From the NCBI RefSeq assembly GCF_003334305.1, contig NZ_QOWS01000019.1: DNA of 64,000 nucleotides. One strand, given 5' to 3'. The notes below the pieces were generated by a model. The model was not told the DNA's origin. It did no database searches and saw only the letters and a program-made list of their open reading frames with translations. A program made the position numbers and the translations under genes. Below, piece by piece: positions 22,850 through 32,800 of this stretch. Within the stretch, counting starts at the first letter, position 1, and each line of letters begins with the position of its first letter. The DNA is from Escherichia coli (lineage in GTDB: Bacteria; Pseudomonadota; Gammaproteobacteria; Enterobacterales; Enterobacteriaceae).

Positions 22850-23170
22850 ATGAATAACGTCATCTTTGATTGGTATTTATCTAGGCAAAAATTCATTCAA
22901 CGTCCACTGCCAAGATGCAACAGGCAGAGTCCTTAACTGTCAGAATCCAAGTGCTCGAAATTATTCGAATTCCTTACTAATTCCTCCTACACAACTATTG
23001 TTATGGAAGCTTGCGAAGATGCTCACTATATGGCACGGAAATTTTCGGAAATGCGTCATAAAACAAAGCTAATACCTCCTCATTTTGTCCAACCCTTCGT
23101 TAAAATTAATAAAAATGATTTCTTTGAGGCTGAAACCATATGTGAAGTTACATCAAGCCATCAATGAGAT
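22850..23170 (+). pseudogene. IS110-family transposase N-terminal remnant (frameshifted), truncated by IS2
   Basis: Begins MNNVIF... and continues in shifted frames as ...IGIYLGKNSFNVHCQDATGRVL...; classic IS110 N-terminus pattern. Confidence 0.5.
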
Positions 23171-23337
23171 TTGTAGCATTAGGAGCTGAATCCCAGCAGA
23201 GGATTCCACTTTTCATCCGTCGTTGACAATGGCCTTGAAAAACGCCGTTACTCACCGTTCTCCTTCACGGTAATACGCAGTTATAGTTGCAGAGCAATGT
23301 AATGGATCTTTTATATTAAGAAATTGTGGATTTGCCC

Positions 23338-24243
23338 CTATATTTCCAGACATCTGTTATCACTTAACCCATTACAAGCCCGCTGCCGCAGATATTCCCG
23401 TGGCGAGCGATAACCCAGCGCACTATGCGGATGCCATTCGTTATAATGCTCGAACGCCTCTGCAAGGTTCTTTGCTGCCGTTAACCCGTCTGGTTTGGGC
23501 ATGATACTGATGTAGTCACGCTTTATCGTTTTCACGAAGCTCTCTGCTATGCCGTTACTCTCCGGACTCCGCATCGCCGTGTTCTTCGGTTCAAGCCCCA
23601 ACATCCGGGCAAACTGCCGTGTTTCATTAGCCCGGTAGCATGAACCATTATCCGTCAGCCACTCTACTGGAGACGCCGGAAGCTCGTTGCCGAAGCGGCG
23701 TTCCACCGCTCCCAGCATGACGTCCTGTACTGTTTCACTGTTGAAGCCGCCCGTAGTAACCGCCCAGTGCAGTGCCTCACGGTCACAGCAGTCCAGCGCG
23801 AACGTGACTCGCAGTTTTTCTCCGTTATCACAGCGGAACTCGAACCCGTCAGAGCACCATCGCTGATTACTTTCTTTCACAGCCACTCTGCCTGTATGTG
23901 CCCGTTTCGATGGCGGTACAGCAGGTTTTCGCTCAAGCAACAGCGCATTCTGGCGCATGATCCGGTAAACACGTTTGGCATTGATCGCAGGCATACCATC
24001 AAGTTCTGCCTGTCTGCGAAGCAGCGCCCATACCCGACGATAACCATACGTGGGCAGCTCTCCGATAACATGGTGTATACGGAGAAGCACATCCGTATCA
24101 TCAGTGTGACGACTGCGGCGGCCATCCATCCAGTCATCGGTTCGTCTGAGAATGACGTGCAACTGCGCACGCGACACCCGGAGACAACGGCTGACTAAGC
24201 TTACTCCCCATCCCCGGGCAATAAGGGCGCGTGCGCTATCCAC
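23338..24243 (-). CDS. insD: IS2 transposase OrfB (InsD)
   Basis: 301-aa ORF recognised as IS2 OrfB. Confidence 0.85.
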
Positions 24244-24566
24244 TTTTTTGCCCGTCCATATTCAACGGCTTCTTTGAGGAGTTCATTTTCCATCGTTTTC
24301 TTGCCGAGCAGGCGCTGGAGTTCTTTAATCTGCTTCATGGCGGCAGCAAGTTCAGAGGCAGGAACAACCTGTTCTCCGGCGGCGACAGCAGTAAGACTTC
24401 CTTCCTGGTATTGCTTACACCAGAGAAATAACTGGCTGGCTGCTACACCATGTTGCCGGGCAACGAGGGAGACCGTCATCCCCGGTTCAAAGCTCTGCTG
24501 AACAATTGCGATCTTTTCCTGTGTGGTACGCCGTCTGCGTTTCTCCGGCCCTAAGACATCAATCAT
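24201..24566 (-). CDS. insC: IS2 transposase OrfA (InsC)
   Basis: ORF containing [47 protein letters not shown]...; start set at MIDVL. Confidence 0.8.
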
Positions 24567-25177
24567 CTGTTCTCCAATGACTAGTCTAAAAACTAGTATT
24601 AAGACTATCACTTATTTAAGTGATACTGGTTGTCTGGAGATTCAGGGGGCCAGTCTAAGGTGCACGAATCCTAGAGGCAGAATGTTTCTCCACATGCTTG
24701 TGGAGAAACCGCCGCATTTTGCCCGTTCTGTACGATACACCGTAGCCAGAGATAAGATATTCTGTTGCTGTATGCTACATACATTACACTATACGAAATC
24801 AGGTCTGTTCAATCAGTAAGGAAATAAACGGACAAACGTTATGTAACCCAGACAGAGATATATTGTCTGGGAAAATAGTGGCTTTTGTGGCGAAAACTAG
24901 TAAAACAGCAACCCGAACCACTTGATGTGCATCGTTTTTGATTATTCCCGTATACTCTTGCAGAAGGAGTTCTCCGTCGGGCTACTGTCATGGTTAATGC
25001 GGGGAATATGGCGACAATACAACACACCTAAAAGAGTAATGGACAGATGAAGCGGTTTATTCATTTCCCATGATTCTGAGTACCTACCAAGTCTGAGTAA
25101 CCACTTTTATACTTTTAATTTTCGTTCATTTAGCTATCGTTTAATTATTATCACATAGGATTCTGCCGTTTTTAACA

Positions 25178-25486
25178 ATGCAGGATAATAAGATGAAAAA
25201 AATGTTATTTTCTGCCGCTCTGGCAATGCTTATTACAGGATGTGCTCAACAAACGTTTACTGTTGGAAACAAACCGACAGCAGTAACACCAAAGGAAACC
25301 ATCACTCATCATTTCTTCGTTTCGGGAATTGGACAAGAGAAAACTGTTGATGCAGCCAAAATTTGTGGCGGTGCAGAAAATGTTGTTAAAACAGAAACTC
25401 AGCAAACATTCGTAAATGGATTGCTCGGTTTTATCACTTTTGGCATCTATACTCCGCTGGAAGCCCGGGTATATTGCTCACAATAG
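25178..25486 (+). CDS. iss: Iss (increased serum survival) lipoprotein, Bor family
   Basis: 102-aa ORF with lipoprotein signal (LITGCAQ), recognised as Iss/Bor. Confidence 0.9.
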   Translation: MQDNKMKKMLFSAALAMLITGCAQQTFTVGNKPTAVTPKETITHHFFVSGIGQEKTVDAAKICGGAENVVKTETQQTFVNGLLGFITFGIYTPLEARVYCSQ

Positions 25487-25523
25487 TTGCCCATCGATAT
25501 GGGGAGCTCATCTGCACTGTTCA

Positions 25524-25782
25524 TTAATATACTTCTGGGCTCCCTACAGTTGTTTTTGCATAGTGATAAGCCTCTCTCTGAGGGAGGAAATAATCCTGTT
25601 CAGCGATGTCTGCCAGTCGGGGGGGCTGCATTATCCACGCCCGAGGCGGTGGTGGCTTCACGCGGGGATGGGCAGATTGATCTGATATGCAACCGACGAC
25701 GACCAGCGGCAACATCATCACGCAGAGCTTCATTTTCAGATTTGGGCCACCTTTTGATTTCTCGTTTAACTTTTGCAGTCAC
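25524..25782 (-). pseudogene. Lambdoid phage spanin remnants (Rz1-like lipoprotein and Rz C-terminal fragment)
   Basis: MKLCVMMLPLVVVGCISDQ...KPPPPRAWIMQPP is Rz1-like; the overlapping frame gives ...DDVAAGRRRLHIRSICPSPREATTASGVDNAA, Rz-like. Convergent with iss as in phage lambda. Confidence 0.6.
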
Positions 25783-26345
25783 CAGACTGTGATTTATTTT
25801 AACAAATCAATAGCTTTCATAAAATTCTCGAAGCTGAAAGCTTAACTGAACCAACCAGCCTGGCTGGTGTTTTCTAAAGACAAAAAGGCCATCAGCAAAA
25901 CACTGATAGTCTGAATCACCTTTATCAATCATGTATGAAGAAAATATGCGCAATTAGTTGACAGTGATTATCATTTTCATTAAAAAGAGCGCGTAGCATT
26001 CTTATTTCATGAGGAAATTTACCCGCCAACAACCTGAGTAGCGAAAGCTGTTCATCCCCAATATTTTTGCTGGCGGGTTCTTTTTTCTACTGTCCTCCTC
26101 CCCAGAGGAAGCATTCCCATTAATCATTACTGGCGAGGAGGCAAGAGAAAAAGTCGGTTCTTTGTCCCTAAATAACAGCATCATTTCAGTCCATGCAAAA
26201 TCTGATTTACCAGCTCACATAATAACCTGATGATACACAGTGTAAGTTCACAGAGATATTGCAATTGCCTCCGGATAAGTAAGGGGAGATTGCACTATGC
26301 AAATGCAGCACCTGAGGTTGGCTATCCTAAGCAGCCGATTATGCG

Positions 26346-27396
26346 TTGAGGCTTTCAGTGATGGCTGATATAGCAACAATGAGAATGAAGGCTCTGCACT
26401 TCTGGGATAAACACGGTATTTCTGCAGCTTCTGAAGCCTTTGGCGTATCCTGCCGCACGCTTTACTGGTGGCGTCAGTTACTGATCAAGGGAGGACCTGA
26501 GGGGCTAATCCCGCACAGTAAGGCACCTCTGGTGCGACGAAAAAAGCACTGGCATCCCGATGTGCTGAAAGAGATTCGACGCCTCAGGACAGAGCTGCCG
26601 AACCTCGGTAAAGAGCAGATTTTTGTTCGCCTGAAGCCCTGGTGCGCATAACGCCATCAGACCTGCCCGAGTGTTTCCACCATCGGCAGAATGATCGCCA
26701 CCGCACACGATAAAATGCGGATGATACCAGTACGTCTGAGCTCGCGGGGTAAGGCTCTGCTTGTCAAAAAGCGAACCACCACCCCCCCGCAGGCCAAAGC
26801 ACTACCGTCCGGTAAAGACAGGAGAGCTCATTGGGATGGACGCCATTGAGCTCAGAATGGGTGAAATGCGTCGCTATATCATTACCATGATCGACGAACA
26901 CAGCGATTATGTACTGGCGCTGGCTGTGCCGTCGCTCAACAGTGATATCGTCAATCACTTTTTCAGCCGTGCAGCCCGGCTGTTCCCTGTCGGTATCAGC
27001 CAGATCATCACAGATAACGGGAAAGAGTTCCTGGGAAGCTTTGACAAAACGCTGCAGGAAGCCGCCATCAAACACCTCTGGACCTATCCCTACACGCCAA
27101 AAATGAACGCTATCTGTGAACGTTTTAACCGGGCATTAAGAGAGCAATTCATTGAATTTAATGAAATTTTACTCTTTGAGGATCTGGCGTTGTTTAACCT
27201 GAAACTGGCGGAATATCTGGCGCTGTATAACAGCAAAAGACTCCACAAGGCGCTCGCACTAACGACGCCCGTGGAATATATTTTAAAAGAGAACAAAAAT
27301 TGCAATATGTGGTGGACCCATACACAGCAAACGCACAGGCCGCCCCGGTTGGGTAGATATGTGGGATGGCTGGTTCAGACTTCAGGATATGGTTGA
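26346..27396 (+). pseudogene. Transposase with helix-turn-helix and rve integrase core, split by frameshift
   Basis: 101-aa helix-turn-helix ORF followed in another frame by a 211-aa integrase-core ORF (...ITDNGKEFLGSFDKTLQEAAIKHLWTYPYTPKMNAICERFNRALREQF...). Confidence 0.6.
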
Positions 27397-28631
27397 GGCT
27401 GGTGATGAAGTCTCTTTATCAGGAGATCTGATCAAGAGACAGCCGCGCAGGGGGATTCACTATGCTGGATTCTTTTAACAAATTCTCCGCTAACCAAAAA
27501 ATAGACTTTTTGCATTCGTAAATGCGTTAAGAGATAATTTTTAAAGTTCCATCAATCTCCCGGCCAGTTCGTCTCGCGGCATTACTCACTATCCGCACAA
27601 CTTCAGTAAGATCATGACTTTTTCAATCGTTATCTGTTGACCAAGCTTTGAAACCACTAGCGTCCCGTCAACCTGACCTGGAATCGTCGAGAACCGCCCA
27701 TAGTTGTGAATTGGCTAGAGTGTGATGGAAAGCAACGCTAAACGACCTAGTCACACATTCTCTTTTCCCTAACAATGACCATTTAGTGAAATAACGTATC
27801 CAAAATGATGACGTGAAAGCCTGATACTGGCAGCGAAAAGCCGAAAAAACTCACCTGGTCAGGAGCAAAAATCGGATTATTCGCCAACAGCGTAATATCA
27901 GCAGTAGTTCTCGACACGCTTGCGCTATAGACAGAGGATGAAACGCTGCTGGTCGGAGTTCTCTATACATTTTTGGCGACGGCAGAACCGCTCACCAATG
28001 CCTTAACGTCTATCAGCCTTCCGGTGAGTTGGAACAGCATGCTCAGCGTTTGCAAGATATTCTCCACGGTCTGTAGCAGCGTAGGTTTCAATTTAAATAT
28101 CCCCAGATAGCCCTCTGGGAGCTTCCCTTTTTATTAAGTTTTAATTACCGTTGCAATAGTTAAATGATATTGGTAATTATTATCATTAGCATTTGTGTCT
28201 GTGTTGTTTCTGGTAAGGCTGAAAGGGAACAAACATCGCCTGTACAACGGCGTTTTTACTTACAGACCAGCGAAGGCGAGACTATCAGGATGATGCATCG
28301 TGTGTCTAAGAAATCACGGTTCTTTCCAGATTCGTTGTTCGGTCTAACACTGCACAAATGCGTCAGAACATCCCGGCGTAGCTGTCCGACGCCATTTGGG
28401 CTGTTCAACAGGACAATGGCGCGTAAGCGTTAATGGAAGTGGGGATACGGAGTTCCCTGTTCACCTGTGTATGTCACGGAAAAGTCTCTGACTGAGCTGT
28501 CCATAACGCTGGTGAAGCACAAATGGCGCAGCATCTGGTAAAGCAGGTTTAACGAAAAGTCGTGTCCTGCTGCTGGCATATGAGTGCGTCGACTGCCTGA
28601 TTTAGATCGTCAAGCGGAGAGGGATTTTCTC

Positions 28632-29747
28632 ATGCGTATTTTGTTTGTAGGCCCGCCTCTCTATGGGCTGTTGTATCCTGTGCTGTCTCTGGCGCAGGCA
28701 TTTCGCGTTAACGGTCATGAAGTGCTGATCGCCAGTGGAGGACAATTCGCACAAAAAGCGGCAGAGGCCGGGTTGGTGGTGTTTGACGCCGCACCCGGTC
28801 TGGATTCCGAAGCTGGTTACCGCCACCATGAGGCACAGCGGAAAAAAAGTAATATCGGAACCCAAATGGGCAACTTCTCATTCTTCAGCGAAGAAATGGC
28901 CGACCATCTGGTGGAGTTTGCCGGACACTGGCGGCCTGACCTCATCATCTACCCTCCGCTCGGAGTCATCGGGCCGCTGATTGCCGCCAAATATGATATA
29001 CCGGTCGTGATGCAAACCGTAGGCTTCGGCCATACCCCCTGGCATATCAAGGGTGTAACGCGTTCGCTCACGGACGCCTATCGTCGCCACAATGTGGGGG
29101 CCACACCACGTGATATGGCCTGGATCGACGTAACACCGCCGAGTATGAGCATTCTGGAAAACGACGGTGAACCCATTATTCCGATGCAGTACGTCCCGTA
29201 TAACGGTGGCGCGGTGTGGGAACCATGGTGGGAGAGAAGGCCCGAGCGTAAACGTCTGCTGGTGAGTCTCGGCACTGTCAAACCGATGGTTGACGGCCTT
29301 GATCTAATCGCCTGGGTTATGGATTCTGCCAGTGAGGTCGATGCCGAGATCATCCTGCATATTTCAGCCAATGCGCGGTCCGATTTGCGCTCGCTGCCGT
29401 CAAATGTTCGCCTGGTTGACTGGATACCCATGGGTGTCTTCCTCAACGGCGCAGATGGTTTCATTCATCATGGCGGAGCAGGCAATACCCTGACAGCGCT
29501 ACACGCTGGTATTCCACAAATCGTCTTCGGCCAGGGAGCCGATCGCCCGGTAAATGCCCGCGTTGTTGCCGAACGCGGCTGCGGGATTATCCCTGGCGAC
29601 GTCGGCCTGTCGAGTAACATGATCAATGCTTTCCTCAACAATCGCTCACTTCGCAAAGCCTCTGAAGAGGTAGCAGCGGAAATGGCGGCGCAACCCTGCC
29701 CAGGTGAAGTGGCGAAAAGCCTGATCACAATGGTACAGAAAGGGTAA
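28632..29747 (+). CDS. iroB: IroB, enterobactin C-glucosyltransferase (salmochelin synthesis)
   Basis: Glycosyltransferase-family ORF; start set at MRILFVGPPL, preceded by a GGAGAGGG ribosome-binding site (371 aa). Confidence 0.9.
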   Translation: MRILFVGPPLYGLLYPVLSLAQAFRVNGHEVLIASGGQFAQKAAEAGLVVFDAAPGLDSEAGYRHHEAQRKKSNIGTQMGNFSFFSEEMADHLVEFAGHWRPDLIIYPPLGVIGPLIAAKYDIPVVMQTVGFGHTPWHIKGVTRSLTDAYRRHNVGATPRDMAWIDVTPPSMSILENDGEPIIPMQYVPYNGGAVWEPWWERRPERKRLLVSLGTVKPMVDGLDLIAWVMDSASEVDAEIILHISANARSDLRSLPSNVRLVDWIPMGVFLNGADGFIHHGGAGNTLTALHAGIPQIVFGQGADRPVNARVVAERGCGIIPGDVGLSSNMINAFLNNRSLRKASEEVAAEMAAQPCPGEVAKSLITMVQKG

Positions 29748-29886
29748 CCACTACACCTTCATGATAATCATATGCCAGCACCCATCCAGGAGTCATGCAT
29801 CCATAACAATGCGGGACCGGAGCGTGCTGGCTTTTTTGCGGAACGATCCGGCCAGTGGATCGTATTTTACAGACGGAGGAGGCTTA

Positions 29887-32800
29887 ATGCCTGCGAATCA
29901 CACTCCCACACCGGCTCAGTCATGGATAGTTCGCCTAGCGCGCGTGTGCTGGGAACGTAAGAAACTTAGTGTCATCGTGGTGGTAGCGTCAGTATCGACT
30001 ATTTTGCTGGCTGCGCTGACGCCACTGCTGACAAGACAGGCTGTGAATGACGCACTGGCGGGCAATCCGGCCCGCCTGCCGTGGCTGGCCTGCGGGTTAC
30101 TGTTGATCGCTTTTTTTGATTTCATCGGTAACTATGTGCGCCGTGGTTATGCCGGGATGCTCTCACTCTGGGTGCAGCATACCCTCAGAGGACGGGTATT
30201 CGACAGTATTCAGAAACTTGACGGCGCAGGCCAGGATGCGCTGCGCACCGGGCAGGTGATTTCACGGACCAACAGCGATCTGCAGCAGGTGCATACCCTG
30301 CTGCAGATGTGCCCGGTGCCGCTGGCAGTGTTCACTTATTACATTGCCGGCATTGCCGTGATGCTGTGGATGTCCCCTGCCATGACGCTTATCGTCGTGT
30401 GCGTACTGGTATGCCTGGCGATCACCGCGCTTCGTGCGCGTCGTAGGGTCTTCGCGCAAACCGGGCTGGCCTCGGACCAACTGGCGAATCTCACCGAACA
30501 TATACGCGAGGTGCTGGCACAGATCTCAGTGGTAAAATCCTGTGTGGCAGAGATGCGTGAAACGCACTGGCTCGATAGGCAGTCGCGGCAGATTGTGCGT
30601 GTACGCATCGGTGCGGTTATCTCGCAGGCGATGCCTGGGGCCACCATGCTGGCGCTACCGGTGCTCGGGCAAATCGTCCTGCTGTGCTACGGCGGGTGGT
30701 CGGTCATGCACGGGCGGATCGATCTCGGTACCTTCGTTGCATTCGCCAGCTTCCTCGCGATGCTGACCGGGCCAACCCGCGTACTGGCATCGTTTCTGGT
30801 TATCGCACAGCGCACTCAGGCGTCCGTGGAGCGGGTGTTTGCACTGATCGACACCCGTTCACAGATGGAGGACGGGACGGAGTCGATTAACAGTCAGGTT
30901 GTCGGACTGGAACTGGAGAATATGAGCTTTGACTACCACCATGGCGACAGACATATCCTCAGCAATATCTCCTTTTCCCTGCGCGCCGGTGAAACCGTGG
31001 CGGTGGTGGGCGCATCGGGTTCAGGAAAATCGACCCTGTTGATGCTACTGGCGCGTTTTTATGATCCCTGCTCCGGAAAGATATGGCTCAACACCAGCGA
31101 AGGCCGACAAAATCTTCGCGATATCAGACTGGAGGCGCTTCGTCGCCGGGTAGGCATCGTATTTGAAGATGCTTTTCTGTTTGCCGGTACGGTGGCGGAA
31201 AATATCGCCTATGGCCACCCTCAGGCAACGGCGGACGACATTCGCCGTGCGGCAGCTGCTGCAGGAGCCAGCGATTTTATTAACGCCCTGCCGAAAGGCT
31301 TCGATAGCCTGTTAACCGAACGGGGTACGAATCTTTCCGGCGGGCAGAGGCAGCGAATAGCGCTGGCGCGGGCGCTCATTACTGCACCGGACGTGTTAAT
31401 CCTGGATGATACTACCTCAGCGGTTGATGCTGTTACGGAAGCGGAGATTAATACCGCGCTGGGTCGCTATGCTGACGAAGGGCATATGCTGCTGGTGATT
31501 GCCCGACGGCGTTCAACACTTCAGCTAGCCAGCCGGGTTGTGGTGCTGGATAAGGGCCGTATGGTGGATACCGGAACCCCGGCAGAACTTGAAGCGCGCT
31601 GTCCGGCGTTCCGCGCACTGATGACCGGCGACAGCGATTTTCTGGCCACGTCCCACAATAGCCACAACGAATTGTGGCCGGCTGAACCAGCGACACAAGA
31701 CGATGTAACGGATACGGGGGATAAAGGTTTTGTCGCCCGTATGACCCGCGTACCGGAAAATGCAGTACAGCAGGCGCTGGCCGGTAAAGGTCGCAAAGTC
31801 ACGTCACTACTGAAGCCTGTGGCGTGGATGTTCGTCATCGCCGCTCTGCTGATCGCACTCGATTCTGCGGCAGGCGTAGGGGTACTGATACTGTTGCAGC
31901 ACGGCATTGACTCCGGTGTCGCCGCAGGCGATATGTCGATCATCGGCCTCTGTGCCCTGCTCGCCCTGTGCCTGGTCATTGTGGGCTGGTGCAGTTATTC
32001 TCTGCAGACGGTCTTCGCCGCCAGAGCGGCGGAATCAGTTCAGCATTCGGTGCGCTTGCGCAGCTTCGGCCATATGCTGCGTCTTGGACTCCCCTGGCAT
32101 GAAAAGCATGCCGATTCGCGTCTTACCCGCATGACCGTTGATGTGGACTCTCTCGCCCGCTTTCTGCAAAACGGCCTTGCCGGTGCGGCCACCAGTCTGG
32201 TGACGATGTTCGCAATCGCCGCCACCATGTTCTGGCTCGACCCGTTCCTGGCGCTGACGGCATTAAGCGCAGTGCCAGTGGCCGCACTGGCAACCATGAT
32301 TTATCGCCGCCTCAGTACCCCTGCTTATGCACAGGCACGGCTGGAAATAGGCAAAGTCAACAGCACCCTGCAGGAAAAAGTCTCTGGCCTGCGTGTCGTG
32401 CAATCGCATGGTCAGCAGGAACTGGAGGGCGCCCGGCTGCGCGCGTTATCGGAGCGTTTCCGCGCAACCCGTGTGCGAGCACAAAAATACCTTGCAGTCT
32501 ATTTTCCGTTCCTGACATTCTGCACCGAGGCCTCCTATGCCGCTGTTCTGTTAGTGGGAGCTTCGCAGGTCGCCGCTGGAGAAATGACTGCCGGGGTACT
32601 GGCGGCTTTCTTCCTGTTGCTGGGGCAATTCTATGGGCCAGTGCAGCAGTTATCAGGGATTGTCGACGCCTGGCAGCAGGCGACAGCCAGCGGCAAACAT
32701 ATTGATGAACTACTGGCGACAGAAGGCACTGAGAACCTCGGGTCCTCTTCGGTCCTCCCTGTCACCGGTGCACTGCATCTTGATGAGGTCACGTTCAGTT

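Follow-up and report, generated by a model that had tools for sequence, protein, structure and literature searches.

The IS2 copy and its surroundings

We analyzed an insertion sequence and its flanks within the window, that is, the whole stretch of 64,000 nucleotides of Escherichia coli DNA under study (contig NZ_QOWS01000019.1). The plasmid type is a ColV/ColBM-type IncFIB virulence plasmid of E. coli, and positions 18000–29326 of the window were 100% identical to pECOS88 (NC_011747.1) over the 11.3 kb compared. The local gene order in pECOS88 is etsC (outer-membrane efflux subunit), a gene for a GTP-binding protein, IS2, iss and iroB, and the IS2 copy carries the PGAP label 'IS3-like element IS2 family transposase'. 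The features around the insertion are as follows.

22787..23205, plus strand: decayed IS110-family remnant, with ~63 bp of the left end followed by codons 1–119 of a ~334-aa transposase (ATG at 22850) and at least two frameshifts
23233..23279, plus strand: 47-bp end of another IS3-family element, ending ...ACGGTAATACGCA, between the IS110 remnant and IS2
23280..23326, no strand: left target flank, 47 bp of plasmid backbone whose last bases are AATTG; sister plasmids run straight into TGTGAGTGGAG-AGGTGCACG
23327..24657, minus strand: intact IS2 (IS3 family), 1331 bp, 98.5% identity to K-12 IS2A, no indels
23327–23367: IS2 right inverted repeat (IRR, TGGATTTGCC...)
23338..24243, minus strand: IS2 orfB (InsD/TnpB, 301 aa), NF006918, 719 bits (cut-off 597), residues 1–301 of 301
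24201..24566, minus strand: IS2 orfA (InsC/TnpA, 121 aa), NF006928, 274 bits (cut-off 229), residues 1–121 of 121
24616–24657: IS2 left inverted repeat (IRL, ...GGCCAGTCTA)
24658..24925, no strand: right target flank, beginning AGGTGCACGAATCC, ColV-plasmid-specific backbone upstream of iss; the preceding 11 bp of the empty site, TGTGAGTGGAG, are missing

We placed the ends of IS2 by alignment to K-12 IS2A (NC_000913.3, 381260–382590, 1331 bp), a copy with ATTAC as its flanking 5-bp repeat. The termini were identical, with 20 substitutions and no indels between the two copies, and the same termini were obtained from two IS2 copies of sister plasmids that have clean 5-bp duplications (GTCGG in L009 and GTGCA in L010). 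The terminal inverted repeats (41/42 bp) are imperfect, and their arms were detected at 23335–23367 and 24616–24648. Full-length matches to the NCBIfam IS2 models, with scores above the curated cut-offs, were obtained for both orfA and orfB; the two frames overlap, and the A6G frameshift motif AAAAAAG lies at 24243–24249, which corresponds to IS2 position 409. The element is a bona fide, ordinary intact IS2, and it resembles K-12 IS2A in its length, its termini, its orfA and orfB with the A6G site and the IS2 models that it passes.

The left junction (23326/23327) reads gaaattg-TGGATTTGCCCC..., and the right junction (24657/24658) reads ...GGGGGCCAGTCTA-aggtgcacg. The flanking 5-mers are AATTG (23322–23326) and AGGTG (24658–24662), and no 5-bp direct repeat is present. 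Such a target-site duplication marks a simple insertion event and not the IS2 element itself. Junction reading and the alignment to K-12 IS2A thus confirmed the sequence-only reading, which had reported an intact IS2 ending at 23327 and 24657 between the unlike 5-mers AATTG and AGGTG; it had also named, as a finding that would refute it, a 5-bp direct repeat emerging once the ends were set by alignment to reference IS2 copies, and none did. Unlike K-12 IS2A with its ATTAC duplication of 5 bp, the window's IS2 lacks a duplication and also 11 bp of its target.

Left of IS2, positions 22787–23199 showed 81% DNA identity to an intact IS110-family element of pYK16-mcr-10, and the homology stopped at 23199. 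The transposase of that element (WP_114502738.1, 334 aa) scored 337 bits on NF033542 (cut-off 140); when used in a tblastn search, its residues 5–29, 36–102 and 103–119 aligned in three different frames within window positions 22863–23205. The fragment at 23003–23164 matched NF033542 positions 54–106 (E = 1.9e-9), which places it in the IS110-type N-terminal catalytic domain. A complete transposase of this family would be an uninterrupted frame of ~330–400 aa, and the remnant has residues 1–119 only, spread over three frames; up to position 25200, WP_114502738.1 had no match to the right of IS2, and its C-terminal two thirds had none at all. At the protein level, codons 1–119 show 66–80% identity to the pYK16-mcr-10 element; unlike that element, the window's copy has lost codons 120–334, has at least two frameshifts and cannot be active. 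The fragment is a dead remnant, and the earlier description of the left flank as a frameshifted IS110-family N-terminus that does not continue on the right was borne out. Directly before the start of the IS110 homology at 22787, we observed a hairpin with a 7-bp stem (22770–22786, ATCCAGT TAT ACTGGAT), which may be the site originally targeted by the IS110-family element.

The remnant had also been described as abutting IS2, which is not the case: its DNA homology stops at 23199, and ~120 bp of other sequence, including the 47-bp IS3-family end, separate the two. Positions 23233–23279 showed 97.7% identity to the last ~45 bp of this IS3-family element in CP063740.1 (3009–3052); a C-terminal fragment of an IS3-family transposase lies ~100 bp upstream of them there, and the homology ends at the terminal CA in the window and in CP063740.1 alike. 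IS2 begins 47 bp to the right of this tip. Plasmids that have no IS2 at the site show the IS110 fragment with an identical end; IS2 therefore did not truncate the IS110 element, and the truncation was an earlier and unrelated event. Most probably the IS110 element was cut after codon ~119 by another IS3-family element, itself later reduced to the 47-bp tip, before the arrival of IS2.

On the right, the 270 bp from IS2 to ~24926 were found in ColV-type plasmids only. Homology to lambdoid prophages of E. coli chromosomes begins at ~24926, upstream of iss (25193–25483), a bor homologue, and an Rz1 remnant follows iss in sister plasmids. A near-perfect hairpin (24684–24709, GTTTCTCCACA TGCT TGTGGAGAAAC) is located in this backbone upstream of iss, 27 bp to the right of IS2. 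An Rfam scan of 22200–25300 gave no match, and promoter and terminator scans gave sites no more numerous than in shuffled sequence. In addition, a 146-bp fragment at 20593–20738, just downstream of the gene for the GTP-binding protein, showed 90% identity to part of IS2 orfB (23493–23638). This fragment is also present in IS2-free plasmids and is therefore an older IS2-like scar.

We further determined how widely this arrangement is distributed. The left flank (21800–23326) and the right flank (24658–26200) were each found in more than 560 PLSDB plasmids at ≥99% identity, and the spacing between them was exactly 1331 bp in the plasmids examined; it follows that the window's IS2 is an old, inherited trait of a large plasmid lineage. 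IS2 occupies the identical site in hundreds of plasmids, and by subtraction ~335 PLSDB plasmids are of this window type.

The empty site and other IS2 insertions at the locus

Comparison with related plasmids, which had been named as the way to check the sequence-only reading, revealed the uninterrupted site. In 13 PLSDB plasmids, the IS110 remnant, the next 127 bp, TGTGAGTGGAG and the right flank form one unbroken stretch, with the IS110 fragment truncated as in the window. The two flanks of these IS2-free sisters are contiguous apart from 11 bp (...AATTG TGTGAGTGGAG AGGTGCA...). In CP056585.1, for example, a short extra segment separates the matches to window positions 20395–23328 and 24658–29997, and the site reads ...ttatattaagaaattg TGTGAGTGGAG aggtgcacgaatcc.... 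The IS2-free plasmids vary among themselves by SNPs and 1–2-bp indels and are therefore not a single recent derivative or clone.

The 11 bp were kept in 8/8 sister loci examined, which span four structural types: the IS2-free L005–L008, L009 with an IS2 further to the left, L003 of the pAPEC-O2-ColV type and L010–L012 of the pAPEC-1 type. Among the loci examined, they were absent only in the window type, exactly where IS2 sits. From these comparisons, the ancestral site was ...TTAAGAAATTG-TGTGAGTGGAG-AGGTGCACGAAT..., and most simply IS2 took the place of 11 bp of its target locally, with no inversion and no large deletion. The flanks AATTG and AGGTG differ because IS2 stands where the 11 bp used to be. 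The first two of these bases (TG) are also the first two bases of IS2, and the left breakpoint is accordingly ambiguous by 2 bp. Outside ColV plasmids no outgroup was found for the 11 bp, as E. coli chromosomes match only from ~24926 (lambdoid, near bor/iss); the direction of the change therefore rests on parsimony across the four structural types. An origin of the 11-mer as an excision scar was considered and rejected, since IS2 contains no stretch of it longer than 6 bp.

IS2 has entered this stretch on other occasions. In NZ_CP023384.1 (L009; IS2 at 1116–2446), the element lies at the equivalent of window positions 22553–22557 with a clean duplication (gatGTCGG-IS2-GTCGGgcacc). Plasmids of the pAPEC-O2-ColV type (NC_007675 and L003, NZ_CP043952.1, IS2 at 2670–4000; ~90 PLSDB plasmids by subtraction) share this left junction, and the IRL end is fused to 23258 (ttctccttcacgg); a 705-bp deletion (the equivalent of 22553–23257), which starts exactly at the IRL end of IS2, has removed the IS110 remnant. 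In the pAPEC-1 type (NZ_CP022166.1, NZ_CP006635.1 and NC_011980.1, L010–L012; 3119–5710; ~123 PLSDB plasmids), IS2 sits 18 bp further right than the left junction in the window, its duplication again clean (aggtGCA..., GTGCA-IS2-GTGCA), and is split by an IS3 that itself has a CTC duplication. The IRR tip of this pAPEC-1-type copy reads TAGATTT instead of TGGATTT.

Three independent IS2 insertions have thus occurred within ~800 bp in one orientation, with the IRR end toward the upstream gene for the GTP-binding protein (20921–22228, minus strand). Either a regional hot spot or selection on expression could account for this pattern; for three insertions, a shared orientation has a probability of 1/4 by chance alone. 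The IS2 copies compared (window, L003, L009, L010 and L011) differ from each other by 16–35 SNPs in mosaic patterns; the window copy is identical to the L003 copy at positions 1–221 and, beyond position 681, to the pAPEC-1-type copy except for one SNP. These mosaics suggest gene conversion or recombination among IS2 copies.

Loss of the target duplication

The sequence-only reading had suggested, for the unmatched flanks, an IS2-adjacent deletion or recombination between two IS2 copies. It correctly ruled out a simple insertion that still has its duplication and correctly saw that target DNA beside IS2 has been lost; the empty sites show that the loss comprises the 11 bp and not the rest of the IS110 element. 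The state of the locus is that left by an IS-adjacent deletion: both IS2 termini are exact and intact, and a contiguous flanking block is missing relative to the uninterrupted site.

We consider it probable that IS2 was inserted normally with a 5-bp duplication and that a 16-bp IS2-adjacent deletion followed. IS-adjacent deletions are typical of the IS3 family, and loss of the duplication by a short deletion of this kind is textbook behaviour. IS2 normally transposes by a copy-out-paste-in route with a minicircle intermediate, and its insertions produce direct repeats of 5 bp (PMC3299598). In the first step, a copied-out IS2 minicircle would have been pasted in, its two ends attacking the target 5 bp apart, so that either AATTG or AGGTG was duplicated. 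In the second step, a later deletion starting precisely at one end of IS2 would have taken out 16 bp, made up of a single copy of the duplication and the 11 bp. The precursor would then have had the junctions CCAGTCTA+AATTGTGTGAGTGGAG on the IRL side or GAGTGGAGAGGTG+TGGATTTGCC on the IRR side. The deletion may have lain on either side (IRL or IRR), and by junction inspection the microhomology at the putative deletion ends is only 1–2 bp, which points to no particular mechanism.

The locus itself provides an analogue of this course. The GTCGG duplication in L009 represents the precursor state, and the 705-bp deletion next to a matching copy in L003 represents the later state. The clean GTGCA duplication in the pAPEC-1 type indicates, in turn, that a 5-bp duplication is normal for IS2 in this region. 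The pAPEC-O2-ColV-type IS2 (NC_007675, NZ_CP043952) and the window's IS2 are alike in locus, element, orientation and loss of the duplication, by deletion from the exact IS2 end under the preferred reading. They differ in that the former lies at 22553–22557, is 28 SNPs away from the window copy, has lost 705 bp including the IS110 remnant, and has a surviving precursor with GTCGG (NZ_CP023384.1).

A comparable case is provided by IS150, also of the IS3 family, for which copies without a target duplication lack a short stretch of target exactly at the IS end, as the window's IS2 does. Among the IS150 deletions, which were often small at first, the shortest measured 14 bp (PMC11708052); the loss in the window amounts to 11 bp net, or to 16 bp if one copy of a duplication is counted. 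Frozen time points revealed the preceding simple insertion in the case of IS150 (PMC11708052), whereas no precursor was found for the window's IS2.

We searched for such a precursor in several collections. In PLSDB and in 5,426 complete E. coli genomes, designed junction queries detected no IS2 at the site that had either duplication (AATTG or AGGTG) along with all of the 11 bp. In metagenome contigs, variable-gap junction patterns matched 10 junctions, seven in the window state and three in the pAPEC-1 state, with no precursor among them; the same patterns gave one pAPEC-1-type match in species-representative genomes and none in viral contigs. A contig with the pAPEC-1-type junction (SFGN01000100.1, 997–1046) is deposited within a metagenome-assembled genome of a 'Lachnospiraceae bacterium', and this assignment is very likely a binning error. 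A precursor is thus at hand for the neighbouring IS2 (L009 to L003) and not for the window's IS2; because no intermediate was found for the latter, the order of the two steps is proposed by analogy.

The same missing intermediate in PLSDB, complete E. coli genomes and metagenome contigs would be expected if IS2 had been inserted aberrantly in one step, either with its ends joined 11 bp apart in the wrong polarity (a reversed stagger) or by capture at a double-strand break, so that the 11 bp were lost at insertion and a duplication never existed. De novo movements of IS5 and IS481 without duplications have been reported, and insertion at DNA breaks was proposed (PMC11708052). However, the only systematic data set for the IS3 family has a prior simple insertion in every duplication-less case (PMC11708052), both other IS2 insertions at this locus made normal 5-bp duplications, and the missing intermediate is weak evidence if the window type has a single founder. 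We therefore regard a one-step origin as unlikely; if true, the duplication-less route that was put forward on the basis of laboratory evolution would have a fixed natural example in a widespread plasmid lineage, at an IS2 hot spot with three independent insertions of the same orientation.

It is still less probable, and in our judgement distinctly so, that two IS2 copies were inserted in the same orientation 16 bp apart, with AATTG and AGGTG duplications, and that homologous recombination between them left one hybrid IS2 and removed 16 bp. The hot spot fits this course, in that one of the three independent same-orientation insertions within ~800 bp lies 2 bp from the required AGGTG site, and so does the mosaic window copy, with its L003-like first 221 positions and its pAPEC-1-like part beyond 681; but all IS2 copies compared are mosaic, so gene conversion explains the pattern equally well. 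Moreover, two rare events would be needed at almost one place, the right flank would read GTGCA instead of the AGGTGCA observed had the existing pAPEC-1-type copy been the partner, and no tandem arrangement was seen in PLSDB or complete E. coli genomes. We also considered whether the pAPEC-1 type could have given rise to the window type through a deletion or IS2-IS2 recombination, and rejected this because the right flanks differ by the dinucleotide AG.

Finally, a large IS2-adjacent deletion that took the rest of the IS110 element, or an inversion or deletion between distant IS2 copies, agrees with the raw pattern of unmatched flanks and a gene truncated on one side, but it is refuted by the empty-site plasmids, in which the flanks are already neighbours and the IS110 fragment stops where it does in the window, and is made still more implausible by the ~120 bp with a foreign 47-bp IS end between the IS110 fragment and IS2 and by the lack of a second IS2 in the window, where only the 146-bp IS2-like fragment was found. 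Of the earlier proposal of recombination between two IS2 copies, the version with distant copies is thereby excluded, and what survives is the special case of two same-orientation insertions 16 bp apart.

Implications for ColV plasmids

Much of this is already known biology: the plasmid is fully sequenced, and IS2 is already annotated in pECOS88. In the papers on ColV plasmids that we read (pAPEC-1, S. Kentucky ColV), the junction itself goes without comment. Our analysis adds the exact loss of 11 bp, the independence of the IS110 truncation and the recognition that this stretch is a repeated target of IS2. Behind the missing duplication lies a local loss of 11 bp rather than any major rearrangement of the virulence plasmid, and the IS110 pseudogene is an older scar; the importance of these points is small beyond bookkeeping. 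The four arrangements of the locus, namely IS2-free, window, pAPEC-1 and pAPEC-O2-ColV with its rare precursor plasmid, could nevertheless mark lineages of ColV/ColBM plasmids, and the locus could serve as a natural target for the study of IS2 site preference and of adjacent deletions in the IS3 family.
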